Shown here one piece after another: positions 5,361-33,908 of a stretch of DNA of 64,000 bases (the first letter of the stretch is position 1; each line of letters begins with the position of its first letter). The notes beneath the pieces are model-generated. The model saw only the letters and a list, made by a program, of their open reading frames with translations. It ran no database searches and was not told the DNA's origin. The stretch comes from Psilocybe cubensis (Eukaryota): positions 1 through 64,000 of the forward strand of contig JAFIQS020000017.1 of the NCBI GenBank assembly GCA_017499595.2, written 5' to 3'. Both the position numbers and the translations under genes were made by a program.

Positions 5361-6063
5361 AAAGAATACTAGCGCGTAAGGCGTAAAGCATTAGAAAAAA
5401 ACCCTAACCGTAAGTATTCCTTGCTACAAAGTAACAAACATCTACTTACAAGCAACACATTGGATTAAATAGCTAAACCTAAACCTAAACCCTAAACCCT
5501 AAACCCTAAGCCCTAACCTAACCCCAACCCTAAGCTAACTAAGTCTAACCTTAGTAGGAAGTAAGGTAGGCGTGTGAACTTCCGAAAGGCATGTGATTGT
5601 GAAGGGCCGGATCTAATTTAGTACATGGGAAAAGTTACTTAGTACCTCGGGAAAAGTTCCTTAGTACCGTGGAAACATTTTTGATGGACCGGATCATGAA
5701 CTGTCCAATTAAGATTCACAACAATCAATCAATTGATTGTTAGGTAAGGACCCAGGTAAGCTATTTATACTCTTGACATGAGAATATTCCCATGTCACGG
5801 TTACTCGGAGCCACGTAACCAGAGTATTTTATATCCATGTGATTCACATCACAGTCAATAACCCACGATGTCAAAGAACAAAAGTGTTGGATCCACTTTT
5901 GACAGGTTACCATGTGCCACATCGACCCGTGACACTCTGTTCATCAGAGATCTGTCTAACTTGACAATAAACATTGACAGATTTGTGATAGTCGGTAAGA
6001 TACATGACAGCTGCGCAGCATCACTTCACGCGATGTCATCGGATGTTCCAGAACATTCCTTCT

Positions 6064-6139
6064 AAGAATAGCCACTGAAGAGTCTATAAAGACGAAAGGG
6101 CTGGCTGCTGATAACAATCAACAGCCCTCTGGCCTTCTT
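6064..6139 (+). ncRNA. Type I hammerhead ribozyme, intact (stem III variant A); predicted cleavage after C6129
   Basis: Stem I GCCA/TGGC extended by AAGAA/TTCTT, core CTGAAGA, stem II GTCT-ATAA-AGAC, GAAA, stem III GGGCTG/CAGCCC, then the T-C site. Confidence 0.92.
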
Positions 6140-6795
6140 TCCATTTAACTCACAGTTTAAACAAGTCGCTCGCACCTCGCTTCGCTCGGTGCTCGCTCCC
6201 CCCCTAAACCTAAACCCTAAACCCTAAACCCTAAACCCTAACCTAACCCCAACCCTAAGCTAACTAAGTCTAACCTTAGTAGGAAGTAAGGTAGGCGTGT
6301 GAACTTCCGAACGGCATGTGATTGTGAAGGGCCGGATCTAATTTAGTACATGGGAAAAGTTACTTAGTACTTCGGGAAAAGTTCCTTAGTACCGTGGAAA
6401 CATTTTTGATGGACCGGATCATGAACTGTCCAATTAAGATTCACAACAATCAATCATTCTATTGTTTGATTGTTAGGTAAGGACCCAGGTAAGCTATTTA
6501 TACTCTAGACATGTGAATATTCCCATGTCGCGGTTACTCGGAGCCACGTAACCAGAGTAATCTATATCCATGTGATTCACATCACAGTCAATAACCCACG
6601 ATGTCAAAGAACAAAAGTGTTGGATCCACTTTTGACAGGTTACCATGTGCCACATCGACCCGTGACACTCTGTTCATCAGAGACCTGTCTAACTTGACAA
6701 TAAACATTGACAGATTTGTGATAGTCGGTAAGATACATGACAGCTGCGCAGCATCACTTCACGCGCTGTCATCGGATGTCTAGAACATTCCTTCT

Positions 6796-6871
6796 AAGAA
6801 TAGCCACTGAAGAGTCTATAAAGACGAAAGGGCTGGTTGTTGGGATCCCCCAACAGCCCTCTGGCCTTCTT
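6796..6871 (+). ncRNA. Type I hammerhead ribozyme, intact (stem III variant B)
   Basis: Same core and stems; distal stem III is GTTGTTGGGATCCCCCAA. Confidence 0.92.
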
Positions 6872-7601
6872 TCTATTTCAAACTCACAGTTTAAACTAGT
6901 CGCTCGCACCTCGCTTCGCTCGGTGCTCGCTCCCCCCCTAAACCCTAAACCTAAACCCTAAACCCTAAACCCTAAACCCTAACCTAACCCCAACCCTAAG
7001 CTAACTAAGTCTAACCTTAGTAGGAAGTAAGGTAGGCGTGTGAACTTCCGAACGGCATGTGATTGTGAAGGGCCGGATCTAATTTAGTACATGGGAAAAG
7101 TTACTTAGTACTTCGGGAAAAGTTCCTTAGTACCGTGGAAACATTTTTGATGGACCGGATCATGAACTGTCCAATTAAGATTCACAACAATCAATCATTC
7201 TATTGTTTGATTGTTAGGTAAGGACCCAGGTAAGCTATTTATACTCTAGACATGTGAATATTCCCATGTCGCGGTTACTCGGAGCCACGTAACCAGAGTA
7301 ATCTATATCCATGTGATTCACATCACAGTCAATAACCCACGATGTCAAAGAACAAAAGTGTTGGATCCACTTTTGACAGGTTACCATGTGCCACATCGAC
7401 CCGTGACACTCTGTTCATCAGAGACCTGTCTAACTTGACAATAAACATTGACAGATTTGTGATAGTCGGTAAGATACATGACAGCTGCGCAGCATCACTT
7501 CACGCGCTGTCATCGGATGTCTAGAACATTCCTTCTAAGAATAGCCACTGAAGAGTCTATAAAGACGAAAGGGCTGGTTGTTGGGATCCCCCAACAGCCC
7601 T

Positions 7602-8530
7602 CAAGTACTCGTCCTCTCCCAAACTCCTGCCGCTTGTGCCTTCCCAACTCATCCGGGAGCCCTTTCGTCACTGATCTTGCCCTTGACTCGGGGACGTTTC
7701 ATCGACATGTTGGCTGCCTCACGGCAAGCGGGGCCCTTTTTCTTTCACTCGCTCACGCCTTCTATGTTGGGTTACGGAGGTCATACAAACTCGTTTTAGT
7801 CTAGCTGCGGGGTTATCCAGCTATGATGACTTTGTAATTCGAGGGCGCGCAGTTCTTCAATGGGTATGGACATCAGGTGAGAGTACACTGGGGGTTGTCA
7901 GGACCAGCTCTGCTGGATACGCTCCTGGCAAGTCGGTTGCAGCCGGCGACACTACCGAATTGCTGGGACGTCCTAAAGCTTGTGGGTACCGCCGACCGCT
8001 GGAAACAGCCTAGGCACCGGTGGCGACCGGGTATGGTAACAATCCCCAAGATTCAGCGAAAGCTGGAATGGATAATCAGCAGCGAATCCGTAACGGTCAC
8101 GCCGACGGAAGCGTTCAACGACTAGGTGGTAGTGGGGTCTTCGGATCTTAAGATATAGTCTTGGGAGTGGGGAAACCCACATCTGGTATCTAAACCGCGC
8201 CTCGCTGCTTACGAGGACGGCCCGAAGTCCAGAACCGCTTAAAACGCGGGTGACCCGGCCTCCCCTTAGTAAAGGGAGTTAACACAAGGATGGACAAATA
8301 GTTCGTCGCCGGAAATGAACCTGTGGCTGTAATGGCTGATGTGGCGCCCCTTGGTAAAGGGCTTAAAGGGTATTAGCCTGCCATATCCAATGGCATGAGA
8401 GTGTCCCTTGGTAAAGGACTTAATAGGCAATAGCCTGCTCTTTTGTCATGAGCGGTATGTAGTGATCGTTTGCCTGTACGGTAGCGCCCATTGCTTGCAC
8501 TGGTCCACGCCCGTAAAAAATCACGAGCCG
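7602..8530 (+). mobile_element. Group I intron IC1-like, 929 nt (copy 2), interrupting the hammerhead that starts at 7537
   Basis: Same insertion point CAGCCCT|...GAGCCG|CTGGCC; near-identical to copy 1. Confidence 0.93.
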
Positions 8531-8644
8531 CTGGCCTTCTTTCTATTTCAAACTCACAGTTTAAACTAGTCGCTCGCACCTCGCTTCGCTCGGTGCTCGC
8601 TCCCCCCCTAAACCCAACGACTTTGCTATCACCCATCAGTTACC

Positions 8645-11600
8645 ATGTCATCCCAATACTCTGCTGCATTCTCTCGTGCCATGTCCCCTACCCTGGACGC
8701 ACTCACCCAGGCCGTCGTCAACAACACTGTCTTCGGCGTCAACGATGAAGCAGGCCGCCATAACGCTCTTATCGACGAGCTGGCCACTGTGGTCATCAAA
8801 AAAATAGCTGAGTGCCGCTCCGTTGACCAAGTCATAGACTGCGTCTTTTTTGACTATCGTGCTGCCCTCAGGGAGTTTCTCCTCAACCTCGCATCGTGGT
8901 GCGACAAGAGGGAAACAGTCAAGGCTAGCCTCGAGCGCCTTGAATCTGCCGTTAGCGCAGGCAACACGCCCAATCGCCTTAAGGTGAAGGCACCCGAGTT
9001 CCAACTTACGAAGGAATTCGCGGATGCCGGGTCAGCGGAGGCTCTTCGAGTCTCCACTACGTTCTCTTCCGCTCGTGATGCCTTCCAAAAGGCAATTAAC
9101 GACGGCGCCGTTCAGGCGAAAAAGGACGAGCTGGCTTTTTGGGATGATAAATGCGCACTCAACTCTTGCTACGAAGCTGCTGCCCTCATCGTTAAGGCAA
9201 CTTACGATGATCGCAAATCCAGCTACAAGCTCCCTGTTTTCTCTACAGACAACAAGGGAGTTCGACGTATAGCAGAGTGGGTAGTGTCTCCGCAAAAGAA
9301 AGCCGAATGCAGTGCGCTGCAAACTATACTGCCGGCGATCTTTTCTCATATCAAACAGATTGTCAACATGCGCCACCGCGCCTTGGCAATTAAGATTGAG
9401 AAAAAGCGGACGACTGCGGCAACAGCCGATGTCGAGATGGCCGATGCGACCAAACCAGGTCCATCGATTCAATCCCTTATTGATAAGGGCTTGAATGCAC
9501 GTCTCAAAAAGCTCAACCTTGGATCTGTGGGCAAGAAGGCAAGTTTTCGTAACCCTTCACCCATAATTCTGGACACTAATTATTACTCTAATTACCCAGA
9601 CTTTGTCTGGCCAGAATTCGTCCAAGGCTCCTCAACCTCAGGCCAGGAAAGCTGGCCCTTCGAAACCCAAGTCGTCGTCGACGCCTTCGCAGAGGAAGCC
9701 TCAAACCAAGGCTTCCAACAAGGTCGACAACAAGAAGAAAGGGAAGGGGAGAGCTCCCGTCAAGAACAACGATCCAAAGGGAAAGGGAAAGGCAAGAGCC
9801 TAGACGCGCGGTCTACTGTAGCATCATTTACGTCGGTGAGACCCGCCTTCCCCAACTCTATTCCTGACGATATACTCACCATGACTAAAACAGACGCAGT
9901 TTCTTTTGTACACCTCAATACCCCGATTTCATTCTTATTGGCTGGCCAGTATAGATCTAGTGTACACTGTAGTCCTGGTGTTTCGGTCCCTGTTGATGTA
10001 GCAAATGATTTATCTCTTGGACTCAATTATATGTTTTTTACACTGCCTTCTAAAAATCTGATCATGCAAGCATGGAATGATTTTCAACGAAGAATAAGAT
10101 GGCGTATCTATTTTTTGTTTAAAGAAGGCATGAATAAACCTTTCGATCCAGACTATGGAGTAAGCTCTAAAAAGAAAGAGAAACCTCCAATGTTACCGCA
10201 ATTTATGGAACTTGGCCTTTCAATGGGACGTCGGTACGTTATTAAAACGATCGCAAGTATCCCGGAAGAAGCCCTTAAAGAGATGCGAAAGCACGCGTTC
10301 TCTCCTAAAAGGGACAAGATCCAAAAGTTTCTTTTCGATAACAACTATGTTATTACGATGACAGATAAGAATCTTGGCCTCGCGGTGTCTGAACGCGACT
10401 GGATATTAAGGAATGAGCTCAATCTTCTTGAAGATGAACGCAACTACGAAGAGTTAGAATTCGAAGTTGCGCAAGAAGTTATGAAGAGCAAAATGATTCA
10501 GATGCAAACTCTCGCACGTACCGTCGAAGATGAACATCTGTTTCTATTTGAACTTGGGTTGTCTCGATTCTTTCTATCGAATGTACCGGAAGACGGATCA
10601 TCGTTCAAGTATCCTCAATTTCATGGTATACCTAAAATCCACAAGAAACCTACTGGATTTAGGCCCATAATTCCGTGTCACTCTGTAGTATTTAATCCTG
10701 CAGCCAAGTTTGTATCAAAAGAGCTTAAGCCGATTATTAAATCGACTCCTTCAATCATTCACGGAACGAAGGATCTCTTTACGAGATTAAGCCAATTGCG
10801 TATAGACCCCAAACGACAATGGTATTTTGTCACCGGGGATGTAGTTGCTTTCTATCCCAATATTCCGTTGGACTTGTGCATCGAAATCGTTTGTAATATG
10901 TACGAGGAATGGTTACTCAACGCTTCGGAAGAGAACACTGCATTAGCCCATATTAATCCAAATTCGTTAGAGAATAACTTGGTTAAATTGGGCATCTTTA
11001 AACGTGCTATCGAGATTGGCAATACGCAATTGATAACACAACATGGGTCTAGATATTTTAGACAAAAAAATGGCCTCGCAATGGGCGTCGCGGATTCTCC
11101 GGACCTTGCTAACCTCTTTGGAGCCCATTTTGAAATAAAGTCAAATATCTTAGACCACCCAAACGTGGCCTTCTATGGAAGGTACATCGACGATTGTTTC
11201 GCAATTGTTTACGCCGAGTCCGAAGCACTTGCACTTAATCTTATTAAAGAAACAATAAAGTTCGATGGTTGTGTTATCGAATGGGCTGTTTCCTCGTCGG
11301 GATGTCAATTTCTCGATGCTTTCATATTCAAGGAGTCTGGAAAACTTCATTGGAAGCCATTTGTCAAGACAGGAAACAACCGAGAACGAGTTCCATGGGT
11401 ATCACATCATCCTTTGGACGTCAAACGTGGCGTCTACATTGGAGAGTTATCCAGGTTAGCCGTGCTATGTAGTACCAAGGAAATCTACATCGGAGCAATT
11501 AGAGACCTTAACGCTCTCTATTTGATGCGCGGTTATCCCGAAAACCTAGTCATGTCTTGGTGTAAGAAGAATATACAAGAACGTTGGGAAAAGCGATTCG

Positions 11601-12178
11601 CTTTACGAGTCGCAGAGCACGACGAATCCATTCTTGTACTTAAAACCAGATTTGATCAGGTATGGAATTGGTTTTCAGCTGCTGAACTTGGAAAGACTGT
11701 TACCGAGTACTGGTCGGCATGGTATGAACATGCCGAGAAAGGTCTGTATAGTGCAGACTCGTCCAGACCCCTTATCAAACCAGATCCAAATTACGTTCAC
11801 GACCTCGATGATGTTCGCCCGGAGCTGTTCACACAGATCCTCGTGGACGGAGAAACTGAGTTCGTACCGGATTTGAGGAAGATAGGACTACTCGGAAGTC
11901 GTTGGATAGTATCGCGAAAGCGCAATACTAATCTTTTCGACCTTGCAAATGTGTGGAAGAAAACAGTTTTTCGTAAACTGGATGAAGACATTGCCGAAAA
12001 AGGTGGTGTTGTTCCCGAAACTCAAAACGTTAATGAAACTTATCATTCTGCTCTAGTTGAAGCTGCTGAACAGATAAGTATCGAAAGTGATAACGAGATA
12101 ATACTTCATAGACGTTCAATCTCACAAGAGAAGGAACATCCAGAATTCGGCAGAATATCCAAATCTTACAACCGATGA
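8645..12178 (+). CDS. Penelope-like ORF1-RT, 1177 aa, subfamily B (copy 2)
   Basis: Intact ORF with the same RT motifs (YIDD). N-terminus MSSQYS marks subfamily B. Confidence 0.93.
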   Translation: MSSQYSAAFSRAMSPTLDALTQAVVNNTVFGVNDEAGRHNALIDELATVVIKKIAECRSVDQVIDCVFFDYRAALREFLLNLASWCDKRETVKASLERLESAVSAGNTPNRLKVKAPEFQLTKEFADAGSAEALRVSTTFSSARDAFQKAINDGAVQAKKDELAFWDDKCALNSCYEAAALIVKATYDDRKSSYKLPVFSTDNKGVRRIAEWVVSPQKKAECSALQTILPAIFSHIKQIVNMRHRALAIKIEKKRTTAATADVEMADATKPGPSIQSLIDKGLNARLKKLNLGSVGKKASFRNPSPIILDTNYYSNYPDFVWPEFVQGSSTSGQESWPFETQVVVDAFAEEASNQGFQQGRQQEEREGESSRQEQRSKGKGKGKSLDARSTVASFTSVRPAFPNSIPDDILTMTKTDAVSFVHLNTPISFLLAGQYRSSVHCSPGVSVPVDVANDLSLGLNYMFFTLPSKNLIMQAWNDFQRRIRWRIYFLFKEGMNKPFDPDYGVSSKKKEKPPMLPQFMELGLSMGRRYVIKTIASIPEEALKEMRKHAFSPKRDKIQKFLFDNNYVITMTDKNLGLAVSERDWILRNELNLLEDERNYEELEFEVAQEVMKSKMIQMQTLARTVEDEHLFLFELGLSRFFLSNVPEDGSSFKYPQFHGIPKIHKKPTGFRPIIPCHSVVFNPAAKFVSKELKPIIKSTPSIIHGTKDLFTRLSQLRIDPKRQWYFVTGDVVAFYPNIPLDLCIEIVCNMYEEWLLNASEENTALAHINPNSLENNLVKLGIFKRAIEIGNTQLITQHGSRYFRQKNGLAMGVADSPDLANLFGAHFEIKSNILDHPNVAFYGRYIDDCFAIVYAESEALALNLIKETIKFDGCVIEWAVSSSGCQFLDAFIFKESGKLHWKPFVKTGNNRERVPWVSHHPLDVKRGVYIGELSRLAVLCSTKEIYIGAIRDLNALYLMRGYPENLVMSWCKKNIQERWEKRFALRVAEHDESILVLKTRFDQVWNWFSAAELGKTVTEYWSAWYEHAEKGLYSADSSRPLIKPDPNYVHDLDDVRPELFTQILVDGETEFVPDLRKIGLLGSRWIVSRKRNTNLFDLANVWKKTVFRKLDEDIAEKGGVVPETQNVNETYHSALVEAAEQISIESDNEIILHRRSISQEKEHPEFGRISKSYNR

Positions 12179-12958: not shown

Positions 12959-13610
12959 TCTATTTCAAACTCACAGTTTAAACTAGTCGCTCGCACCTCG
13001 CTTCGCTCGGTGCTCGCTCCCCCCCTAAACCCTAAACCCTAAACCCTAAACCCTAACCTAACCCCAACCCTAAGCTAACTAAGTCTAACCTTAGTAGGAA
13101 GTAAGGTAGGCGTGTGAACTTCCGAACGGCATGTGATTGTGAAGGGCCGGATCTAATTTAGTACATGGGAAAAGTTACTTAGTACTTCGGGAAAAGTTCC
13201 TTAGTACCGTGGAAACATTTTTGATGGACCGGATCATGAACTGTCCAATTAAGATTCACAACAATCAATCATTCTATTGTTTGATTGTTAGGTAAGGACC
13301 CAGGTAAGCTATTTATACTCTAGACATGTGAATATTCCCATGTCGCGGTTACTCGGAGCCACGTAACCAGAGTAATCTATATCCATGTGATTCACATCAC
13401 AGTCAATAACCCACGATGTCAAAGAACAAAAGTGTTGGATCCACTTTTGACAGGTTACCATGTGCCACATCGACCCGTGACACTCTGTTCATCAGAGACC
13501 TGTCTAACTTGACAATAAACATTGACAGATTTGTGATAGTCGGTAAGATACATGACAGCTGCGCAGCATCACTTCACGCGCTGTCATCGGATGTCTAGAA
13601 CATTCCTTCT

Positions 13611-13686
13611 AAGAATAGCCACTGAAGAGTCTATAAAGACGAAAGGGCTGGTTGTTGGGATCCCCCAACAGCCCTCTGGCCTTCTT
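13611..13686 (+). ncRNA. Hammerhead ribozyme, intact (variant B), upstream of ORF copy 3
   Basis: Same motif, no intron. Confidence 0.9.
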
Positions 13687-13789
13687 TCTATTTCAAACTC
13701 ACAGATTAAACTAGTCGCTCGCACCTCGCTTCGCTCGGTGCTCGCTCCCCCCCTAAACCCAACGACTTTGCTATCACCCATCAGTTACC

Positions 13790-16700: not shown

Positions 16701-17324
16701 TCTTGGTGTAAGAAGAATATACAAGAACGTTGGGAAAAGCGATTCGCTTTACGAGTCGCAGAGCACGACGAATCCATTCTTGTACTTAAAACCAGATTTG
16801 ATCAGGTATGGAATTGGTTTTCAGCTGCTGAACTTGGAAAGACTGTTACCGAGTACTGGTCGGCATGGTATGAACATGCCGAGAAAGGTTTGTATAGTGC
16901 AGACTCGTCCAGACCCCTTATCAAACCAGATCCAAATTACGTTCACGACCTCGATGATGTTCGCCCGGAGCTGTTCACACAGATCCTCGTGGACGGAGAA
17001 ACTGAGTTCGTACCGGATTTGAGGAAGATAGGACTACTCGGAAGTCGTTGGATAGTATCGCGAAAACGCAATACTAATCTTTTCGACCTTGCAAATGTGT
17101 GGAAGAAAACAGTCTTTCGTAAACTGGATGAAAACATCGCTGAAAAAGGTGGTGTTGTTCCCGAAACTCAAAACGTTAATGAAACTTATCATTCTGCTTT
17201 AGTTGAAGCTGCTGAACAGATAAGTATCGAAAGTGATAACGAGATAATACTTCATAGACGTTCAATCTCACAAGAGAGGGAACATCCAGAATTCGGCAGA
17301 ATATCCAAATCTTACAACCGATGA
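13790..17324 (+). pseudogene. Penelope-like ORF1-RT, subfamily B, +1 frameshift near 14300 (copy 3)
   Basis: AAATGCGGCGCTCAAC versus AAATGCGCACTCAAC in copy 2. The ORF splits into 13790-14341 and 14169-17324. Confidence 0.88.
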
Positions 17325-18034: not shown

Positions 18035-18110
18035 AAGAATAGCCACTGAAGAGTCTATAAAGACGAAAGGGCTGGTTGTTGGGATCCCCCAACAGCCCTC
18101 TGGCCTTCTT
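18035..18110 (+). ncRNA. Hammerhead ribozyme, intact (variant B)
   Basis: Same motif. Confidence 0.9.
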
Positions 18111-18831: not shown

Positions 18832-18932
18832 TCCATTTAACTCACAGTTTAAACAAGTCGCTCGCACCTCGCTTCGCTCGGTGCTCGCTCCCCCCCTAAA
18901 CCCAACGACTTTGCTATTACCCAACAGCTACT

Positions 18933-23412: not shown

Positions 23413-23961
23413 TAACCTAACCCCAACCCTAAGCTAACTAAGTCTAACCTTAGTAGGAAGTAAGGTAGGCGTGTGAACTTCCGAACGGCATGTGATTGTG
23501 AAGGGCCGGATCTAATTTAGTACATGGGAAAAGTTACTTAGTACCTCGGGAAAAGTTCCTTAGTACCGTGGAAACATTTTTGATGGACCGGATCATGAAC
23601 TGTCCAATTAAGATTCACAACAATCAATCAATTGATTGTTAGGTAAGGACCCAGGTAAGCTATTTATACTCTAGACATGTGAATATTCCCATGTCGCGGT
23701 TACTCGGAGCCACGTAACCAGAGTACTCTATATCCATGTGATTCACATCACAGTCAATAACCCACGATGTCAAAGAACAAAAGTGTTGGATCCACTTTTG
23801 ACAGGTTACCATGTGCCACATTGACCCGTGACACTCTGTTCATCAGAGACCTGTCTAACTTGACAATAAACATTGACAGATTTGTGATAGTCGGTAAGAT
23901 ACATGACAGCTGCGCAGCATCACTTCACGCGCTGTCATCGGATGTCTAGAACATTCCTTCT

Positions 23962-24036
23962 AAGAATAGCCACTGAAGAGTCTATAAAGACGAAAGGGCT
24001 GGTTGTTGGGATCCCCCAACAGCCCTCTGGCTTCTT
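23962..24036 (+). ncRNA. Hammerhead ribozyme, intact (variant B, 1-nt deletion in the stem I internal loop)
   Basis: Core intact; 3' strand reads TGGCTTCTT instead of TGGCCTTCTT. Confidence 0.88.
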
Positions 24037-24138
24037 TCCATTTTAACTCCCAGTTTAAACTAGTCGCTCGCACCTCGCTTCGCTCGGTGCTCGCTCCCCC
24101 CCTAAACCCAACGACTTTGCTATCACCCATCAGCCACT

Positions 24139-27100
24139 ATGTCATCCCAATATTCTGCTGCTTTCTCTCGTGCCATGTCCCCCACCCTGGACGCACTCAC
24201 CCAGGCCGTCGTCAACAACACCGTCTTCGGCGTCAACGATGAAGCAGGCCGCCATAACGCTCTGATCGACGAGCTGGCCACTGTGGTCATCAAAAAAATA
24301 GCTGAGTGCCGCTCCGTTGACCAAGTCATAGACTGCGTCTTTTTTGACTATCGTGCTGCCCTTAGGGAGTTTCTCCACAACCTCGCATCGTGGTGCGATA
24401 AGAGGGAAACAGTCAAGGCTAGCCTCGAGCGCCTTGAATCTGCCGTTAGCGCAGGCAACACGCCCAATCGCCTTAAGGTGAAGGCACCCGAGTTCCAACT
24501 TACGAAGGAATTCGCGGATGCCGGGTCAGCGGAGGCTCTTCGAGTCTCCACTACGTTCTCTTCCGCTCGTGATGCCTTCCAAAAGGCAATTAACGACGGC
24601 GCCGTTCAGGCGAAAAAGGACGAGCTGGCTTTTTGGGATGATAAATGCGGCGCTCAACTCTTGCTACGAAGCTGCTGCCCTCATCGTTAAGGCAACTTAC
24701 GATGATCGCAAATCCAGCTACAAGCTCCCTGTTTTCTCTACAGACAACAAGGGAGTTCGACGTATAGCAGAGTGGGTAGTGTCTCCGCAAAAGAAAGCCG
24801 AATGCAGTGCGCTGCAAACTATACTGCCGGCGATCTTTTCTCATATCAAACAGATTGTCAACATGCGCCACCGCGCCTTGGCAATTAAGATTGAGAAAAA
24901 GCGGACGACTGCGGCAACAGCCGATGTCGAGATGGCCGATGCGACCAAACCAGGTCCATCGATTCAATCCCTTATTGATAAGGGCTTGAATGCACGTCTC
25001 AAAAAGCTCAACCTTGGATCTGTGGGCAAGAAGGCAAGTTTTCGTAACCCTTCACCCATAATTCTGGACACTAATTATTACTCTAATTACCCAGACTTTG
25101 TCTGGCCAGAATTCGTCCAAGGCTCCTCAACCTCAGGCCAGGAAAGCTGGCCCTTCGAAACCCAAGTCGTCGTCGACGCCTTCGCAGAGGAAGCCTCAAA
25201 CCAAGGCTTCCAACAAGGTCGACAACAAGAAGAAAGGGAAGGGGAGAGCTCCCGTCAAGAACAACGATCCAAAGGGAAAGGGAAAGGCAAGAGCCTAGAC
25301 GCGCGGTCTACTGTAGCATCATTTACGTCGGTGAGACCCGCCTTCCCCAACTCTATTCCTGACGATATACTCACCATGACTAAAACAGACGCAGTTTCTT
25401 TTGTACACCTCAATACCCCGATTTCATTCTTATTGGCTGGCCAGTATAGATCTAGTGTACACTGTAGTCCTGGTGTTTCGGTCCCTGTTGATGTAGCAAA
25501 TGATTTATCTCTTGGACTCAATTATATGTTTTTTACACTGCCTTCTAAAAGTCTGATCATGCAAGCATGGAATGATTTTCAACGAAGAATAAGATGGCGT
25601 ATCTATTTTTTGTTTAAAGAAGGCATGAATAAACCTTTCGATCCAGACTATGGAGTAAGCTCTAAAAAGAAAGAGAAACCTCCAATGTTACCGCAATTTA
25701 TGGAACTTGGCCTTTCAATGGGACGTCGGTACGTTATTAAAACGATCGCAAGTATCCCGGAAGAAGCCCTTAAAGAGATGCGAAAGCACGCGTTCTCTCC
25801 TAAAAGGGACAAGATCCAAAAGTTTCTTATCGATAACAACTATGTTATTACGATGACAGATAAGAATCTTGGCCTCGCGGTGTCTGAACGCGACTGGATA
25901 TTAAGGAATGAGCTCAATCTTCTTGAAGATGAACGCAACTACGAAGAGTTAGAATTCGAAGTTGCGCAAGAAGTTATGAAGAGCAAAATGATTCAGATGC
26001 AAACTCTCGCACGTACCGTCGAAGATGAACATCTGTTTCTATTTGAACTTGGGTTGTCTCGATTCTTTCTATCGAATGTACCGGAAGACGGATCATCGTT
26101 CAAGTATCCTCAATTTCATGGTATACCTAAAATCCACAAGAAACCTACTGGATTTAGGCCCATAATTCCGTGTCACTCTGTAGTTTTTAATCCTGCAGCC
26201 AAGTTTGTATCAAAAGAGCTTAAGCCGATTATTAAATCGACTCCTTCAATCATTCACGGAACGAAGGATCTCTTTACGAGATTAAGCCAATTGCGTATAG
26301 ACCCCAAACGACAATGGTATTTTGTCACCGGGGATGTAGTCGCTTTCTATCCCAATATTCCGTTGGACTTGTGCATCGAAATCGTTTGTAGTATGTACGA
26401 GGAATGGTTACTCAACGCTTCGGAAGAAAACACTGCATTAGCCCATATTAATCCAAATTCGTTAGAGAATAACTTGGTTAAATTGGGCATCTTTAAACGT
26501 GCTATCGAGATTGGCAATACGCAATTGATAACACAACATGGGTCTAGATATTTTAGACAAAAAAATGGCCTCGCAATGGGCGTCGCGGATTCTCCGGACC
26601 TTGCTAACCTCTTTGGAGCCCATTTTGAAATAAAGTCAAAAATCTTAGACCACCCAAATGTGGCCTTCTATGGAAGGTACATCGACGATTGTTTCGCAAT
26701 TGTTTACGCCGAGTCCGAAGCACTTGCACTTAATCTTATTAAAGAAACAATAAAGTTCGATGGTTGTGTTATCGAACGGGCTGTTTCCTTGTCGGGATGT
26801 CAATTTCTCGATGCTTTCATATTCAAGGAGTCTGGAAAACTTCATTGGAAGCCATTTGTCAAGACAGGAAACAACCGAGAACGAGTTCCATGGGTATCAC
26901 ATCATCCTTTGGACGTCAAACGTGGCGTCTACATTGGAGAGTTATCCAGGTTAGCCGTGCTATGTAGTACCAAGGAAATCTACATTGGAGCAATTAGAGA
27001 CCTTAACGCTCTCTATTTGATGCGCGGTTATCCCGAAAACCTAGTCATGTCTTGGTGTAAGAAGAATATACAAGAACGTTGGAAAAAGCGATTCGCTTTA

Positions 27101-27673
27101 CGAGTCGCAGAGCACGACGAATCCATTCTTGTACTTAAAACCAGGTTTGATCAGGTATGGAATTGGTTTTCAGCTGCTGAACTTGGAAAAACTGTTACCA
27201 AGTACTGGTCGGCATGGTATGAACATGCCGAGAAAGGTCTGTATAGTGCAGACTCGTCCAGACCCCTTATCAAACCAGATCCAAATTACGTTCACGACCT
27301 CGATGATGTTCGCCCGGAGCTGTTCACACAGATCCTCGTGGACGGAGAAACTGAGTTCGTACCGGATTTGAGGAAGATAGGACTACTCGGAAGTCGTTGG
27401 ATAGTATCGCGAAAACGCAATACTAATCTTTTCGACCTTGCAAATGTGTGGAAGAAAACAGTCTTTCGTAAACTGGATGAAGACATTGCCGAAAAAGGTG
27501 GTGTTGTTCCCGAAACTCAAAACGTTAATGAAACTTATCATTCTGCTCTAGTTGAAGCTGCTGAGCAGATAAGTATCGAAAGTGATAACGAGATAATACT
27601 TCATAGACGTTCAATCTCACAAGAGAGGGAACATCCAGAATTCGGCAGAATATCCAAATCTTACAACCGATGA
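24139..27673 (+). pseudogene. Penelope-like ORF1-RT, subfamily B-like, same +1 frameshift near 24650 (copy 5)
   Basis: Same ATGCGGCGCTC lesion as copy 3, plus private substitutions (e.g. VIERAVSLSG for VIEWAVSSSG). Confidence 0.88.
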
Positions 27674-28440
27674 AAAGAATACTAGCGCTTAAGGCGTAAA
27701 GCATTAGAAAAAAACCCTAACCGTAAGTATTCCTTGCTACAAAGTAACAAACATCTACTTACAAGCAACACATTGGATTAAATAGCTAAACCTAAACCTA
27801 AACCCTAAACCCTAAACCCTAAGCCCTAACCTAACCCCAACCCTAAGCTAACTAAGTCTAACCTTAGTAGGAAGTAAGGTAGGCGTGTGAACTTCCGAAC
27901 GGCATGTGATTGTGAAGGGCCGGATCTAATTTAGTACATGGGAAAAGTTACTTAGTACCTCGGGAAAAGTTCCTTAGTACCGTGGAAACATTTTTGATGG
28001 ACCGGATCATGAACTGTCCAATTAAGATTCACAACAATCAATCAATTGATTGTTAGGTAAGGACCCAGGTAAGCTATTTATACTCTAGACATGTGAATAT
28101 TCCCATGTCGCGGTTACTCGGAGCCACGTAACCAGAGTACTCTATATCCATGTGATTCACATCACAGTCAATAACCCACGATGTCAAAGAACAAAAGTGT
28201 TGGATCCACTTTTGACAGGTTACCATGTGCCACATTGACCCGTGACACTCTGTTCATCAGAGACCTGTCTAACTTGACAATAAACATTGACAGATTTGTG
28301 ATAGTCGGTAAGATACATGACAGCTGCGCAGCATCACTTCACGCGCTGTCATCGGATGTCTAGAACATTCCTTCTAAGAATAGCCACTGAAGAGTCTATA
28401 AAGACGAAAGGGCTGGTTGTTGGTACCCCCCAACAGCCCT

Positions 28441-29369
28441 CAAGTACTCGTCCTCTCCCAAACTCCTGCCGCTTGTGCCTTCCCAACTCATCCGGGAGCC
28501 CTTTCGTCACTGATCTTGCCCTTGACTCGGGGACGTTTCATCGACATGTTGGCTGCCTCACGGCAAGCGGGGCCCTTTTTCTTTCACTCGCTCACGCCTT
28601 CTATGTTGGGTTACGGAGGTCATACAAACTCGTTTTAGTCTAGCTGCGGGGATATCCAGCTATGATGACTTTGTAATTCGAGGGCGCGCAGTTCTTCAAT
28701 GGGTATGGACATCAGGTGAGAGTACACTGGGGGTTGTCAGGACCAGCTCTGCTGGATACGCTCCTGGCAAGTCGGTTGCAGCCGGCGACACTACCGAATT
28801 GCTGGGACGTCCTAAAGCTTGTGGGTACCGCCGACCGCTGGAAACAGCCTAGGCACCGGTGGCGACCGGGTATGGTAACAATCCCCAAGATTCAGCGAAA
28901 GCTGGAATGGATAATCAGCAGCGAATCCGTAACGGTCACGCCGACGGAAGCGTTCAACGACTAGGTGGTAGTGGGGTCTTCGGATCTTAAGATATAGTCT
29001 TGGGAGTGGGGAAACCCACATCTGGTATCTAAACCGCGCCTCGCTGCTTACGAGGACGGCCCGAAGTCCAGAACCGCTTAAAACGCGGGTGACCCGGCCT
29101 CCCCTTAGTAAAGGGAGTTAACACAAGGATGGACAAATAGTTCGTCGCCGGAAATGAACCTGTGGCTGTAATGGCTGATGTGGCGCCCCTTGGTAAAGGG
29201 CTTAAAGGGTATTAGCCTGCCATGTCCAATGGCATGAGAGTGTCCCTTGGTAAAGGACTTAATAGGCAATAGCCTGCTCTTTTGTCATGAGCGGTATGTA
29301 GTGATCGTTTGCCTGTACGGTAGCGCCCATTGCTTGCACTGGTCCACGCCCGTAAAAAATCACGAGCCG
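28441..29369 (+). mobile_element. Group I intron IC1-like, 929 nt (copy 3), interrupting the hammerhead that starts at 28376
   Basis: Same insertion point and motifs as copies 1 and 2. Confidence 0.93.
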
Positions 29370-29481
29370 CTGGCCTTCTTTCCATTTAACTCACAGTTTA
29401 AACAAGTCGCTCGCACCTCGCTTCGCTCGGTGCTCGCTCCCCCCCTAAACCCAACGACTTTGCTATTACCCAACAGCTACC

Positions 29482-32400
29482 ATGTCTTCCACTTACTCTG
29501 CTGCCTTCTCTCGTGCCATGTCCCCCACCCTGGACGCACTCACCCAGGCTGTCGTCAACAACACAGTTTTTGGCGTCAACGACGAAGCTGGCCGCCACAA
29601 CGCCCTCATCGACGAGTTGGCCACTGTCGTCATCAAGAAAATAGCTGAGTGCCGCTCCATTGACCAGATTGTAGACTGCGTCTTTTTTGACTATCGTGCT
29701 GCCCTTAGGGAGTTTCTCCTCAACCTCGCATCGTGGTGCGATAAGAGGGAAACAGTCAAGGCTAGCCTCGAGCGCCTTGAACTTGCCGTTAGCGCAGGCA
29801 ACACCCCCAATCGCCTTCGGGTGAAGGCTCCCGAGTTCCAACTTACGAAGGAATTCGCGGATGCCGGGTCAGCGGAAGCTCTTCGAGTTTCCTCTACGTT
29901 CTCCACCGCTCGTGATGTCTTCCAAAAGGCAATCAACGACGGCGCCATTCAGGCGAAAAAGGACGAACTGGCCTTTTGGGATGATAAATGCGCACTCAAT
30001 AACTGTTATGAAGCTGCTGCCCTCATCGTTAAGACAACTTACGATGATCGCAAATCCAGCTATAAGCTCCCCGTTTTCTCTACAGACAACAAGGGAGTTC
30101 GTCGAATAACAGATTGGGTAGTGTCACCGCAGAAGAAGGCTGAATGCAGCGCATTGCAAACCATTTTGCCAGCCATCTTCTCTCATATCAAACAGATTGT
30201 CAACTTGCGCCACCGCGCTTTGGCAATCAAGATTGAGAAAAAGCGGTCGACTGCGGCAACAGCCGATGTCGAGATGGCCGATGCGACCAAACCAGGTCCA
30301 TCGATTCAATCCCTTATTGATAAGGGCTTGAATGCACGTCTCAAGAAGCTCAACCTTGGATCTGTGGGCAAGAAGGCAAGTTCTCGTAACCCTTCACCCA
30401 TAATTCTGGATACTAATTACTATTCTAATTACCCAGACTTTGTCTGGCCAGAATTCGTCCAAGGCTCCTCAACCTCAGGCCAAGAAAGCTGGCCCTTCGA
30501 AATTCAAACCCTCGTCGACGCCTTCGCAGAAGAAGCCCCAAACCAAGGCTTCCAACAAGGTCGACAACAAGAAGAAAGGGAAGGGGAGAGCTCCCGTCAA
30601 GAACGATCCAAAGGGAAAGGGAAAGGCAAGAGCCTAGACGCGCGGTCTAATGTAGTACCTTTTACGTCGGTAAGACCCGCCTTCCCCAACTCTATTCCTG
30701 ACGATATACTCACCATGACTAAAACAGACGCAGTTTCTTTTGTACACTTACATACGCCGATCTCATTCTTGTTGGCTGGCCAGTATCGTAGTAGTGTACA
30801 CTGTAGTCCTGGTGTGGTGGTCCCTGTAGATATAGCAAATGATTTGTCGCTCGGACTCAATTATATGTTTTTTACTCTGCCTTCTCAAAGTCTGATCATG
30901 CAAGCATGGAATGATTTTCAACGAAGAATAAGATGGCGTATCTATTTTTTGTTTAAGGAAGGCATGAACAAACCTTTTGATCCAGATTACGGAGTAAGCT
31001 CAAAAAAGAAAGAGAAACCTCCAGTATTACCGCAATACATGGAACTTGGCCTTTCGATGGGACGTCGGTACGTGCAACGCACGATCGCAAGTATCCCGGA
31101 AGAAGCCCTTACGGAGATGCGAAAGCACGCGTTCTCTCCTAAAAGGGACAAGATCCGTAAGTTTCTTATCGATAACAACTATGTTATTACGATGACAGAT
31201 AAGAATCTTGGCCTCGCGGTGTCTGAACGCGACTGGATATTAAGGAATGAGCTCAATCTTCTTGAAGATGAACGTAACTATGAAGAGTTAGAATTCGAAG
31301 TTGCGCAAGAAGTAATGAAGAGCAAAATGATCCAGATGCAAACTCTTGCACGTACCGTCGAAGATGAACATCTGTTTCTATTTGAACTTGGGTTGTCTCG
31401 ATTCTTTCTATCGAATGTACCGGAAGACGGATCATCGTTCAAGTATCCTCAATTTCATGGTATACCTAAAATCCACAAGAAACCTACTGGATTTAGGCCC
31501 ATAATTCCGTGTCACTCTGTAGTATTTAATCCTGCAGCCAAGTTTGTATCAAAAGAGCTTAAGCCGATTATTAAATCGACTCCTTCAATCATTCACGGAA
31601 CGAAGGATCTCTTTACGAGATTAAGCCAATTGCGTATAGACCCCAAACGACAATGGTATTTTGTCACCGGGGATGTAGTTGCTTTCTATCCCAATATTCC
31701 GTTGGACTTGTGCATCGAAATCGTTTGTAGTATGTACGAGGAATGGTTACTCAATGCTTCGGAAGAAAACACTGCATTAGCCCATATTAATCCAAATTCG
31801 TTAGAGAATAACTTGGTTAAATTGGGCATCTTTAAACGTGCTATCGAGATTGGCAATACGCAATTGATAACACAACATGGGTCTAGATATTTTAGACAAA
31901 AAAATGGCCTCGCAATGGGCGTCGCGGATTCTCCGGACCTTGCTAACCTCTTTGGAGCCCATTTTGAAATAAAGTCAAAAATCTTAGACCACCCTAATGT
32001 GGCCTTCTATGGAAGGTACATCGACGATTGTTTTGCAATTGTTTACGCCGAGTCCGAAGCACTTGCACTTAATTTAATTAAAGAAACAATAAAGTTCGAT
32101 GGTTGTGTTATCGAATGGGCTGTTTCCTCGTCGGGATGTCAATTTCTCGATGCTTTCATATTCAAGGAGTCTGGAAAACTTCATTGGAAGCCTTTTGTCA
32201 AGACAGGAAACAACCGAGAACGAGTTCCATGGGTATCACATCATCCTTTAGACGTCAAACGTGGCGTTTACATTGGAGAGTTATCCAGGTTAGCCGTGCT
32301 ATGTAGTACCAAGGAAATCTACATTGGAGCAATTAGAGACCTTAACGCTCTCTATTTGATGCGCGGTTATCCCGAAAACCTAGTCATGTCTTGGTGTAAG

Positions 32401-33012
32401 AAGAATATACAAGAACGTTGGGAAAAGCGATTCGCTTTACGAATCGCAGAGCACGACGAATCCATTCTTGTACTTAAAACCAGGTTTGATCAGGTATGGA
32501 ATTGGTTTTCAGCTGCTGAACTTGGAAAAACTGTTACCGAGTACTGGTCGGCATGGTATGAACATGCCGAGAAAGGTCTGTATAGTGTAGACTCGTCCAG
32601 ACCCCTTATCAAACCAGATCCAAATTACGTTCACGACCTCGATGATGTTCGCCCGGAGCTGTTCACACAGATCCTCGTGGACGGAGAAACTGAGTTCGTA
32701 CCGGATTTGAGGAAGATAGGACTACTCGGAAGTCGTTGGATAGTATCGCGAAAGCGCAATACTAATCTTTTCGACCTTGCAAATGTGTGGAAGAAAACAG
32801 TTTTTCGTAAACTGGATGAAGACATTGCCGAAAAAGGTGGTGTTGTTCCCGAAACTCAAAACGTTAATGAAACTTATCATTCTGCTCTAGTTGAAGCTGC
32901 TGAACAGATAAGTATCGAAAGCGATAACGAGATAATACTTCATAGACGTTCAATCTCACAAGAGAGGGAACATCCAGAATTCGGCAGAATATCCAAATCT
33001 TACAACCGATGA
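29482..33012 (+). CDS. Penelope-like ORF1-RT, 1176 aa, subfamily A (copy 6)
   Basis: Intact ORF with RT motifs. Confidence 0.93.
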   Translation: MSSTYSAAFSRAMSPTLDALTQAVVNNTVFGVNDEAGRHNALIDELATVVIKKIAECRSIDQIVDCVFFDYRAALREFLLNLASWCDKRETVKASLERLELAVSAGNTPNRLRVKAPEFQLTKEFADAGSAEALRVSSTFSTARDVFQKAINDGAIQAKKDELAFWDDKCALNNCYEAAALIVKTTYDDRKSSYKLPVFSTDNKGVRRITDWVVSPQKKAECSALQTILPAIFSHIKQIVNLRHRALAIKIEKKRSTAATADVEMADATKPGPSIQSLIDKGLNARLKKLNLGSVGKKASSRNPSPIILDTNYYSNYPDFVWPEFVQGSSTSGQESWPFEIQTLVDAFAEEAPNQGFQQGRQQEEREGESSRQERSKGKGKGKSLDARSNVVPFTSVRPAFPNSIPDDILTMTKTDAVSFVHLHTPISFLLAGQYRSSVHCSPGVVVPVDIANDLSLGLNYMFFTLPSQSLIMQAWNDFQRRIRWRIYFLFKEGMNKPFDPDYGVSSKKKEKPPVLPQYMELGLSMGRRYVQRTIASIPEEALTEMRKHAFSPKRDKIRKFLIDNNYVITMTDKNLGLAVSERDWILRNELNLLEDERNYEELEFEVAQEVMKSKMIQMQTLARTVEDEHLFLFELGLSRFFLSNVPEDGSSFKYPQFHGIPKIHKKPTGFRPIIPCHSVVFNPAAKFVSKELKPIIKSTPSIIHGTKDLFTRLSQLRIDPKRQWYFVTGDVVAFYPNIPLDLCIEIVCSMYEEWLLNASEENTALAHINPNSLENNLVKLGIFKRAIEIGNTQLITQHGSRYFRQKNGLAMGVADSPDLANLFGAHFEIKSKILDHPNVAFYGRYIDDCFAIVYAESEALALNLIKETIKFDGCVIEWAVSSSGCQFLDAFIFKESGKLHWKPFVKTGNNRERVPWVSHHPLDVKRGVYIGELSRLAVLCSTKEIYIGAIRDLNALYLMRGYPENLVMSWCKKNIQERWEKRFALRIAEHDESILVLKTRFDQVWNWFSAAELGKTVTEYWSAWYEHAEKGLYSVDSSRPLIKPDPNYVHDLDDVRPELFTQILVDGETEFVPDLRKIGLLGSRWIVSRKRNTNLFDLANVWKKTVFRKLDEDIAEKGGVVPETQNVNETYHSALVEAAEQISIESDNEIILHRRSISQEREHPEFGRISKSYNR

Positions 33013-33714
33013 AAAGAATACTAGCGCTTAAGGCGTAAAGCATTAGAAAAAAACCCTAACCGTAAGTATTCATTGCTATAAAGTAACAAACATCTACTTA
33101 CAAGCAACACATTGGATTAAATAGCTAAACCTAAACCTAAACCCTAAACCCTAAACCCTAAGCCCTAACCTAACCCCAACCCTAAGCTAACTAAGTCTAA
33201 CCTTAGTAGGAAGTAAGGTAGGCGTGTGAACTTCCGAACGGCATGTGATTGTGAAGGGCCGGATCTAATTTAGTACATGGGAAAAGTTACTTAGTACTTC
33301 GGGAAAAGTTCCTTAGTACCGTGGAAACATTTTTGATGGACCGGATCATGAACTGTCCAATTAAGATTCACAACAATCAATCAATTGATTGTTAGGTAAG
33401 GACCCAGGTAAGCTATTTATACTCTTGACATGTGAATATTCCCATGTCGCGGTTACTCGGAGCCACGTAACCAGAGTAATCTATATCCATGTGATTCACA
33501 TCACAGTCAATAACCCACGATGTCAAAGAACAAAAGTGTTGGATCCACTTTTGACAGGTTACCATGTGCCACATTGACCCGTGACACTCTGTTCATCAGA
33601 GACCTGTCTAACTTGACAATAAACATTGACAGATTTGTGATAGTCGGTAAGATACATGACAGCTGCACAGCATCACTTCACGCGCTGTCATCGGATGTCT
33701 AGAACATTCCTTCT

Positions 33715-33790
33715 AAGAATAGCCACTGAAGAGTCTATAAAGACGAAAGGGCTGGTTGTTGGTACCCCCCAACAGCCCTCTGGCCTTCTT
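33715..33790 (+). ncRNA. Hammerhead ribozyme, intact (variant B with GGTACC)
   Basis: Same motif; most centromere-proximal copy. Confidence 0.9.
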
Positions 33791-33855
33791 TCCATTTAAC
33801 TCACAGTTTAAACAAGTCGCTCGCACCTCGCTTCGCTCGGTGCTCGCTCCCCCCC

Positions 33856-33908
33856 TAAACCCTAAACCCTAAACCCTAAACCCTAAACCCTAAACCCTAA
33901 ACCCTAAA
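33856..33908. repeat. Proximal telomeric tract (7 x TAAACCC) joining the array to unique subtelomeric DNA
   Basis: Heptamer run followed abruptly by non-repetitive sequence. Confidence 0.93.

Follow-up and report, generated by a model that had tools for sequence, protein, structure and literature searches.

The window, i.e., the whole 64,000-nt stretch of Psilocybe cubensis DNA that was analyzed, starts at a chromosome end and carries an array of six telomere-attaching Penelope-like retroelements without endonuclease (E1 to E6), plus one solo unit. We assign them to the Coprina type, a label that rests on element architecture: the location at the chromosome end, the 3' end joined to telomere repeats and the fixed orientation. 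A preliminary description had counted 12 repeat units, which is correct, but in a span starting at position 5507 that omits the first of them (at 177). The features are as follows (u, unit; all haplotypes refer to the units).

1..176, no strand assigned: terminal telomere array (AAACCCT)25; the window start is the chromosome end
177..1800, +: u1, 5' unit of E1; haplotype A; with intron
731..789, +: hammerhead of u1, split by the intron (5' strand of helix I, CTGAAGA core, helix II, GAAA, helix III, U-C)
789..1717, +: first copy of the group I intron, 929 nt (5' exon end U788, intron end G1717, 3' exon start C1718)
992..1369, +: RF00028 match, 73 bits, whole model (1-253); catalytic core P3-P9
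1078..1083, +: proposed internal guide GGGGTT, directly 5' of the P2 hairpin; read by eye
1384..1717, +: 3' peripheral domain of the intron, ~334 nt, with three CCCTT(A/G)GTAAAGG hairpins
1791..1800, +: CCCTAAACCC, a single telomere repeat within the leader
1830..5360, +: ORF of E1, intact, 1176 aa; reverse transcriptase, 98-99% identity to Psilocybe cubensis proteins
5473..5533, +: telomere-like tract linking the 3' UTR to the following unit; conserved
5517..6210, +: u2, 3' unit of E1; haplotype A; without intron; telomere-repeat end
6242..6944, +: u3, solo unit; haplotype B; without intron; telomere-repeat end
6983..8615, +: u4, 5' unit of E2; haplotype B; with intron
7602..8530, +: group I intron copy in u4 (Rfam core 7805-8182)
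8645..12178, +: ORF of E2, intact, 1177 aa
12329..13031, +: u5, 3' unit of E2; haplotype B; without intron; telomere-repeat end
13057..13760, +: u6, 5' unit of E3; haplotype B; without intron
13790..17324, +: ORF of E3, frame broken by an additional G at ORF nt 511
17481..18183, +: u7, 3' unit of E3; haplotype B; without intron; telomere-repeat end
18209..18903, +: u8, 5' unit of E4; haplotype A; without intron
18763..18825, +: type I hammerhead of u8, not interrupted; cleavage predicted after C18821
18933..22463, +: ORF of E4, intact, 1176 aa
22620..23313, +: u9, 3' unit of E4; haplotype A; without intron; telomere-repeat end
23416..24109, +: u10, 5' unit of E5; upstream part haplotype C, leader part unique; without intron
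24139..27673, +: ORF of E5, +1 G frameshift at ORF nt 511, common to E3 and E5
27830..29452, +: u11, internal unit, 3' of the E5 ORF and 5' of the E6 ORF; with intron
28441..29369, +: group I intron copy in u11 (Rfam core 28725-29021)
29482..33012, +: ORF of E6, intact, 1176 aa
33169..33861, +: u12, 3' unit of E6; without intron; telomere-repeat end

Reverse transcriptase motifs such as YIDD are readable in the ORF protein. The window's own protein had no Pfam match at an E value of 0.01 or better, and RVT_1 was matched in 7 of 23 family members; a Pfam scan of the family members found no GIY-YIG domain. The telomere-like tract is conserved to the point that identical variant repeats follow five of the six ORFs, with one repeat fewer after that of E2. 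All telomere-ending units stop at the CCCTAAACCC of the leader, which is for that reason the presumed priming site, and at the end of u12 telomere repeats (33853-33908) abut unique subtelomeric DNA. The 5' and 3' units of the same element are homogenized, with zero to four differences at variable sites, and haplotype mosaics are present at u10 to u12, e.g., u11 has haplotype C in its upstream part and haplotype A in the leader.

The sequence of the 929-nt insert, which only some of the units carry, identifies it as a group I intron that is structurally complete and has no endonuclease gene. All three inserts match RF00028 over the full model (1-253) with 73, 73 and 70.9 bits, against a gathering threshold of 50 bits in Rfam. 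The borders, U/C...G/C, obey the group I U/G rule, the last intron base being G in every copy (G1717, G8530 and G29369), and the proposed guide GGGGTT pairs with the 5' exon AGCCCU, with a G.U at the splice site. No convincing P10 pairing could be drawn for the P. cubensis intron. Of 80 metagenome loci, three have a homologous intron beside the hammerhead, at positions other than that in P. cubensis. Two of these introns have their guide at the same location, with sequences that match their own exons: GGTTAA with TTAACT in L030 and GC(AA)AAGTC with GACTT(C)GT in L078. The latter also ends in G (G8076), and its intron shares an identical 19-nt word with the 3' peripheral domain. P7 was invariant in all five homologues. 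When the five cores were compared, 86.8% of cells were paired, versus 31.8 to 50.3% with the partners slid, and two-sided changes were found in 37 of 67 core pairs (0 of 500 shuffles had as many; slid controls, 7 to 15), in a test that has only five sequences and a structure partly derived from them. The longest open frames of the intron have 108 and 101 codons, and among the five frames scanned no Pfam family reached the threshold. A lariat-capping ribozyme was sought between positions 600 and 1830, without any Rfam match at E values up to 10. The intron is hosted not by rDNA but by a retroelement leader in the array at the chromosome end; a literature search returned no published nuclear group I intron at a non-rDNA site. 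Where contigs of three DNA-like runs continue past the two intron borders, they lead into element exons only (11 loose ends were not displayed).

Within the element's type I hammerhead, the intron is located between U16.1 and C17, a single base 5' of where cleavage is predicted, which is an unreported home for group I introns. The preliminary description had noticed neither this position nor the group I identity of the insert. A full hammerhead core (CUGANGA, GAAA and U-H, with three helices) is present in all 12 units and aligns to the type I model with helix I at the cut site, with Rfam scores that fall below threshold (23-29.1 versus 56.3 bits for RF03152; 19.5 versus 48.5 for RF00008); its minimum-energy fold is non-canonical in P. 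cubensis and canonical in L078. Among the relatives, an exact 4-nt helix I complement follows N-U-H in 36 of 56 cores (31 loci), and helix I covaries, with 11 different pairs. The position of the intron separates the hammerhead core from its helix I 3' strand, found in u1 beyond the intron (TGGC, 1719-1722), so that an unspliced transcript would have neither a cleavable bond nor a helix I partner, and exact removal of the intron restores the complete hammerhead sequence. Where the insert is absent, the cut site precedes the ATG by 111 nt (18821 versus 18933), as had been described before. The accompanying suggestion, that the intron may shield the coding transcript from the hammerhead, finds support in the structure, with the cut bond absent and the helix I 3' strand 929 nt away. 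Such a lock would be specific to P. cubensis rather than a rule of the family, since the introns of L078 and L030 are inserted 13 nt and ~4 nt 3' of the cut, respectively, i.e., outside or at the edge of helix I.

The distribution of the intron along the array agrees with the preliminary description. The three intron-bearing units (inserts at 789-1717, 7602-8530 and 28441-29369) are each directly upstream of an intact ORF, all six telomere-ending units (u2, u3, u5, u7, u9 and u12) lack it, and so do three of the six ORF-proximal units (u6, u8 and u10), which are followed by one intact ORF (18933-22463) and two frameshifted ones. The empty sites are exact as claimed, their sole blemish being a 1-nt ambiguity of placement due to a shared C: they read ...CAGCCCTC/TGGCC, and the filled ones ...CAGCCCT, then the intron (C AAGTAC...GAGCCG), then CTGGCC. 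Nine such exact intron-free sites exist in the window, and intron-free junction contigs were found also in DNA-like run X2; the stretch turned up in no RNA run. The intron probably self-splices, and the empty sites would then be ligated exons fixed by reverse transcription. The former proposal, which has 3' units arise from spliced or re-ligated RNA, is consistent with these data and with the published circle model (PMC4209133).

The caution about small numbers was justified, and chance combined with shared ancestry is the strongest competitor: intron-bearing units would be rare, and three of them ORF-proximal by luck. We regard this as rather unlikely, though a serious contender. The position bias (3 of 6 versus 0 of 6) has a Fisher p of 0.18 two-sided and 0.091 one-sided, and it remains non-significant (0.07) when L078 is added; these tests treat as independent units that share ancestry. 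In all three DNA-like runs the depth of intron contigs was 104 to 629 versus a summed unit-flank depth of ~1,500 to 9,600, i.e., a few percent, as a rough measure and not a copy number. The bias may thus mirror a low overall frequency of intron-bearing units, and if they are that rare, none among six telomere-ending units is the count expected by chance. Besides, L030, L034 and L078 were found via their ORF, a selection that favors ORF-proximal units. However, intron-bearing units occur in three haplotypes and so do not descend as one inherited copy, and the homogenized 5' and 3' units still differ in intron state in all three intron-bearing elements that have both units (E1, E2 and E6). The same pattern is seen in L078, with the intron in the ORF-proximal unit and none in the unit ending in telomere-type repeats, although these two units are only 82.7% alike and may be separate insertions.

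The introns are present in haplotypes A, B and C and differ pairwise at 1, 1 and 2 of 929 positions. The flanks of u1 and u4 differ at 27 of 620 and 157 of 3,534 positions, so that the host elements are ~4.4% apart (Fisher, 1/929 versus 184/4154, p = 2e-15). Lineage markers are kept 10 nt upstream and ~14 nt downstream of the intron (the first column that distinguishes A from B). Near-identical introns in diverged hosts that retain their markers indicate that the intron moved between lineages without co-conversion and without an endonuclease gene of its own, and we infer that it may have spread as RNA, reverse-splicing into transcripts of the element that were then copied by the element's own reverse transcriptase. 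Movement could instead have been at the DNA level and free of any RNA stage, by an endonuclease encoded elsewhere or by ectopic gene conversion among chromosome ends. Subtelomeres recombine frequently, which speaks for this, and the mosaics at u10 to u12 are compatible with DNA-level exchange. Homing is moreover an efficient and documented route for group I introns (PMC3679873). Yet the intron has no endonuclease frame, DNA repair across a 929-nt heterology should convert the flanks and the markers 10 and ~14 nt away were co-converted in none of the three copies, while RNA of the host retroelement is copied in any case; we therefore consider it improbable. Still less credible is an ancestral intron inherited vertically, kept identical by purifying selection and lost independently by splicing from the intron-free units. 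Exact empty sites are compatible with loss by splicing and reverse transcription, and the core is structurally constrained, but the flank rate predicts 41 intron differences between u1 and u4 where one was observed (Poisson P = 6e-17), and ~620 of the 929 nt are peripheral and, being 49 to 66% conserved versus L078, free to change, yet identical among the window copies. A non-working insert, be it spliceosomal, a nested transposon or a group I relic that is dead and passively carried, hardly deserves consideration, given borders (C...G, CA...CG, or A...C, AA...GC, when shifted by one base) that are not GT-AG or GC-AG and fit the group I U/G rule, the absence of a target-site duplication, the full-length Rfam match with covarying helices and a guide that matches the exon in three lineages.

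We consider reasonably probable a model that combines self-splicing, spread at the RNA level, a hammerhead lock and intron-free telomere-ending copies. A free intron would insert itself, by reverse splicing, where element RNA is complementary to its guide, and the intron-bearing product would then be copied onto a chromosome end by the reverse transcriptase that the element encodes. The unspliced intron would lock the hammerhead and keep the RNA whole, together with its 5' unit, and its splicing would free the hammerhead to cut. Telomere-ending units (3' units and solos) would be copied first, from the leader CCCTAAACCC, on hammerhead-processed RNA (either circular or a cleaved leader whose cut site has been re-joined or bridged) that would be intron-free by construction; only the 5' unit, copied last, could be read through an unspliced intron. 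The weakest step of the model is the copying of telomere-ending units from hammerhead-processed RNA. In one contig, 1718-1797 is the sole part of the element and continues into unrelated DNA, a tail fragment compatible with copying that started at the priming site and ran to the cut 5' end. It should be noted that leader priming on unspliced RNA should give intron-bearing 3' units, and the model must assume that this is rare. A broader and more tentative scenario, which we find possible but would not put ahead of its negation, is that an endonuclease-free group I lineage left rDNA for Coprina leaders, spreads by reverse splicing and locks the hammerhead in P. cubensis. If true, this would be the first natural system to complete the long-postulated RNA-level route of group I mobility; unspliced RNA would serve as full-length template or messenger, spliced RNA would be licensed for hammerhead processing, and the lock would account for the absence of the intron from the first-copied, telomere-ending units.

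Coprina and Athena are said, by Gladyshev and Arkhipova in 2007, to be endonuclease-deficient Penelope-like elements. In the papers describing them (PMC8557442, PMC4209133), they have the same telomere attachment, with the 3' end towards the centromere and reverse-complement telomere repeats, and the same direct repeat units around one reverse transcriptase ORF, with a monomeric type I hammerhead in the repeat. The literature examined on Penelope-like elements mentions no group I intron, and the introns described there are spliceosomal. The closest counterparts of the intron itself are the nuclear group IC1/IE introns of rDNA (Tetrahymena, Didymium; PMC3679873), which share the P3-P9 core with an invariant P7 (GACTA/TAGTC), the U at the 5' splice site, the terminal G, the guide 5' of P2, an extended P5, large P1/P9 peripheral insertions and the all-ribozyme form without endonuclease. 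They sit, however, in rRNA genes, whereas the P. cubensis intron is in the leader of a telomeric retroelement, inside a hammerhead. The reverse-splicing route (PMC1299323, PMC3679873) involves the same endonuclease-free intron and guide-complementary site without co-conversion of flanks, a combination that is the signature expected of it. For rDNA introns, the review (PMC3679873) notes that neither the reverse transcription step nor the integration step is backed by evidence. Here the element whose RNA is targeted has its own reverse transcriptase and inserts at telomeres, which would supply both steps.

For hammerhead retrozymes and in the circle model (PMC4209133, PMC4918200), hammerhead-cut RNA is proposed to have compatible ends, to be re-joined and to be copied over more than a single unit, and such multi-unit copying agrees with the near-identical 5' and 3' units of the P. 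cubensis array. A circle alone would give the same junction at each pass and thus does not account for elements in which the 5' unit has the intron and the 3' unit has none. Twin-ribozyme introns (Didymium, Naegleria), with a splicing and a lariat-capping ribozyme, likewise couple two ribozymes in one transcript, the action of one deciding the fate of the downstream mRNA, but their second ribozyme is group I-like and inside the intron, whereas that of P. cubensis is a hammerhead in the exons. Discontinuous hammerheads of mammalian mRNAs have parts hundreds of bases apart, their insertion being in a loop, where it leaves assembly of the ribozyme possible. The P. cubensis hammerhead is split over a similar distance, i.e., also hundreds of bases, but the insertion is at the cleavable bond, so that the ribozyme would exist only after splicing.

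The optional 929-nt insert is present in 3 of the 12 repeat units (u1 to u12), and its distribution agrees in every detail with the preliminary description. The array and the three copies are located as follows.

1-176, at the start of the window: terminal telomere array, (AAACCCT)25
177-33908, all on the plus strand: 12 copies of a unit of ~700 nt and six large ORFs
789-1717: insert in u1
7602-8530: insert in u4
28441-29369: insert in u11

The interrupted units had been said to sit directly 5' of intact ORFs, and this is so in all three cases (1176-1177 aa). The three ORF-proximal units without insert are followed by one intact ORF and by two with a common +1 G at nt 511. As also described, the insert is missing from all six telomere-ending units, the empty sites are exact, and 111 nt separate the predicted hammerhead cut from the ATG downstream of it. 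The pattern of presence and absence in the window is real. The positional bias read from it is statistically unproven, since the difference between 3/6 and 0/6 is not significant (Fisher test, 0.18 two-sided, 0.091 one-sided). One of the 80 metagenome loci with relatives of the element, L078, has an ORF-proximal unit with an intron and a unit without it that ends in CCCTAACCCTAACC. Adding this locus gives 4/7 versus 0/7 (0.07 two-sided, 0.035 one-sided), with the L078 units only 82.7% alike; the two may be separate insertions. Judging by its sequence, the object behind the pattern is a mobile group I intron that resides in a telomeric retroelement and, in P. cubensis, interrupts a hammerhead.

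The hosts are six Penelope-like elements (E1 to E6), Coprina-type by their architecture, with one ORF each. Reverse transcriptase motifs occur in the ORF product, which is 98-99% identical to proteins named Psilocybe cubensis in NCBI and UniRef. Among the 23 aligned members of its family, 7 match RVT_1 and no endonuclease domain was found. Downstream of each ORF come a conserved 3' UTR, a telomere-like tract and a unit, in that order. The tract has the same variant repeats in five of the six cases, the one after ORF2 being one repeat shorter. The 3' UTR and tract together (5361-5533 and five equivalent stretches) are conserved down to the variant repeats, with five of the six of equal length. 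The conserved variants mean that the tract is templated rather than added by telomerase, and it could serve as terminal redundancy for strand transfer. Units u2, u3, u5, u7, u9 and u12 end at the motif CCCTAAACC(C) and pass in phase into telomere-repeat tracts that vary in length, and the remaining six run on into the leader and the ATG. Passages of PMC8557442 and PMC4209133 describe the same architecture for Penelope-like elements that lack an endonuclease and attach to telomeres. The +1 G insertion is common to the ORFs of E3 (13790-17324) and E5 (24139-27673) and would therefore be a single inherited frameshift in a defective copy, presumably propagated in trans, or else a homopolymer error of the assembly common to both. 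In the unique subtelomeric region there is a tandem array (51429-52940) of 15 copies with a 99-nt period and 82% matches; the period corresponds to 33 residues, as in protein repeats of the ankyrin type.

The matches of all three inserts span the whole Rfam model for group I catalytic introns (73, 73 and 70.9 bits, threshold 50). A one-base ambiguity in placing the borders was settled by the only placement compatible with a group I intron. The last base of the 5' exon is then U (...AGCCCU), the first and last bases of the intron are C and G, and CUGGCC opens the 3' exon; these borders exclude a spliceosomal intron. The proposed internal guide, the sequence that pairs with the 5' exon to form P1, is GGGGUU at 1078-1083, immediately 5' of the P2 hairpin; it would pair with AGCCCU, leaving a G.U at the splice site. 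A second GGGGTT copy (996-1001), 82 nt 5' of the proposed guide, varies at position 1000 (T/A between copies, A in all three DNA-like sequencing runs). It was rejected as the guide for being polymorphic and away from P2. No P10 could be drawn for the intron, in which we found neither a frame resembling a homing endonuclease nor a second ribozyme. A profile search of the PDB gave only a low-complexity match, to a TATA-binding protein. The 3' peripheral domain (1384-1717 in the window, 7802-8076 in L078) is 65.6% conserved between P. cubensis and L078, the core 63.9%. This domain holds two to three copies of a CCCTTGGTAAAGG hairpin and the longest exact word shared over the whole intron (19 nt, GCCGGAAATGAACCTGTGG).

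The hammerhead core (CUGAAGA, helix II, GAAA, helix III, UC) is present in all 12 units and aligns, below threshold, to the type I model; helix I pairs an upstream GCCA with the UGGC that immediately follows the cut. The reading as a hammerhead, a prediction, is supported mainly by the family comparison: in the 80 related loci, 36 of 56 cores (31 loci) have the exact 4-nt complement of helix I right after N-U-H, using 11 different helix I pairs. Cleavage is predicted at CCCUC^UGGCC, and the intron is inserted at CCCU^CUGGCC. Because these sites are one base apart, the intron-bearing RNA would have neither the scissile bond nor helix I beside the core, and exact splicing is predicted to restore the hammerhead. 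Moreover, the six exon bases needed for P1 of the intron are the same ones that helix III of the hammerhead uses, which puts the two helices in competition. This locking of the ribozyme until splicing would be a feature of P. cubensis and not a rule of the family, since the introns of two related loci, L078 and L030, leave the hammerhead unsplit.

Searched with a profile of the intron core, three of the 80 loci proved to have introns of this family: L078, with two copies (72.8 and 76.5 bits), and L030 and L034, with one copy each (34.2 and 31.6 bits, below threshold; E = 1e-5 and 6e-5). In the five cores, 86.8% of the cells are paired, versus 31.8-50.3% with the partners slid, and in 37 of the 67 pairs both partners change, a value reached in 0 of 500 shuffles (for five sequences and a structure partly derived from them). 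The two copies in L078 are:

7231-8076: first intron, borders U|C...G|C, 13 nt 3' of the predicted hammerhead cut
within 8130-9125: second intron (Rfam match 8344-8657, 76.5 bits), past the telomere-repeat priming motif and before the long ORF, whose ATG is at 9123

From an ATG at 8170, a frame begins with MSS, like the N-terminus of the family, and stops after 36 codons, so the second intron may interrupt the coding start. The L030 intron lies ~4 nt 3' of the predicted cut, the exact position of its 5' border being deduced solely from the guide match and from L023, a relative that lacks the intron and whose unit is 93% alike. Read by eye, the guides of L030 (GGUUAA, against exon UUAACU) and L078 (GC(AA)AAGUC, against exon GACUU(C)GU) are in positions homologous to that of P. 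cubensis. Three exon contexts, each with a matching guide, argue that introns of this family are aimed at their own sites.

The three introns of the window differ pairwise at only 1, 1 and 2 of 929 positions. Their surroundings are far more diverged: between u1 and u4, 27 of 620 unit positions and 157 of 3534 ORF positions differ, a rate at which 41 differences would be expected in the intron, against the 1 observed (Fisher p = 2e-15). By this comparison, the intron is younger than the elements that host it. The units fall into three haplotypes, A (u1, u2, u8, u9), B (u3-u7) and C (u10-u12), and the intron is found in one unit of each. The lineage markers that flank it, 10 nt 5' and ~14 nt 3' (the first column distinguishing A from B), agree with the intron-free units of the same haplotype. 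With transfer of the intron at the DNA level, co-conversion of the flanks would be expected, against what these markers show. Vertical descent under constraint is an unlikely explanation of the near-identity, as about two-thirds of the intron is peripheral and only 49-66% conserved relative to a relative. A reverse transcriptase jumping onto the free excised intron was rejected, since it predicts ...CCCTC+C...G+TGG, versus the observed ...CCCT+C...G+CTGG. Three units combine an upstream part of haplotype C with a foreign leader:

23416-24109: u10, leader unique
27830-29452: u11, leader of haplotype A
33169-33861: u12, leader of haplotype A

The switch between halves falls within a window of ~24 nt around the hammerhead, intron and cut site, which suggests that separate RNA molecules were joined there.

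We also found the intron in three DNA-like runs (same organism label, a single study), as one unbranched contig that extends at both borders into the exons of the element and differs from the window intron at only 3-7 positions. Contigs of the intron-free junction are likewise present. With run contigs built at k = 31, the intron is unlinkable past the ~80-nt leader between it and the priming motif. A 351-nt contig (runs X3 and X4) contains only this leader (1718-1797, from the intron/hammerhead site to CCCTAAACC) followed by 255 nt of unrelated DNA, and looks like a solo tail fragment located elsewhere in the genome. No RNA run was found to contain 600-1900; X4, guessed to be an RNA run, gave a single contig, which covers only 1718-1797. 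Intron contig depths were 104, 189-221 and 629, and summed unit-flank depths ~1,500-9,600, a rough measure and not a copy number. If these depths are read literally, units with the intron form a small minority, and 0/6 would then be expected by chance.

A mechanistic origin of the bias can be proposed as well. Within an element, the 5' and 3' units have a common haplotype, with 0-4 differing sites, and would thus be regenerated from one source in most cycles, as predicted by the published circle model (passages of PMC4209133). Since a single circle would leave the two units with identical junctions, the proposal requires a second state of the template. Copying would start at CCCTAAACCC in the leader of hammerhead-processed RNA and then cross a re-joined or bridged hammerhead junction, which would necessarily lack the intron, as only spliced RNA contains a hammerhead. 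Only for the 5' unit, copied last, could the template be RNA that is unspliced and therefore uncut. Two observations fit this proposal: the contig joining 1718-1797 to unrelated DNA resembles a leader copied up to the cut 5' end, and upstream and leader halves reassort in u10-u12 inside a 24-nt window around the cut site. Against it, priming on unspliced RNA should yield intron-bearing 3' units, and nothing here explains why they would be rare. As an account of the telomere-ending units, we consider the copying proposal at best an even bet.

A mobile group I intron in a telomeric retroelement is unexpected, and testable. Full-text searches that paired group I introns with Penelope-like elements, Coprina, retrotransposons, telomeres or subtelomeres, in a collection covering a minority of subscription journals, found no retroelement-borne case. 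The predicted coupling of two ribozymes, with a hammerhead present only after a group I intron removes itself, would be of a new kind, and may bear on the choice between messenger and template RNA in Penelope-like elements. According to the review PMC3679873, group I introns of the nucleus are confined to rRNA genes, and for their spread by reverse splicing, evidence is lacking for the steps of reverse transcription and integration. In P. cubensis, a complete group I intron lies inside a nuclear retroelement that would provide both missing steps. It carries the signature expected of reverse splicing: its copies are nearly identical although their hosts have diverged, it lacks an endonuclease gene, and the flanking markers are not co-converted. 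The question can thereby be tested in a culturable fungus.
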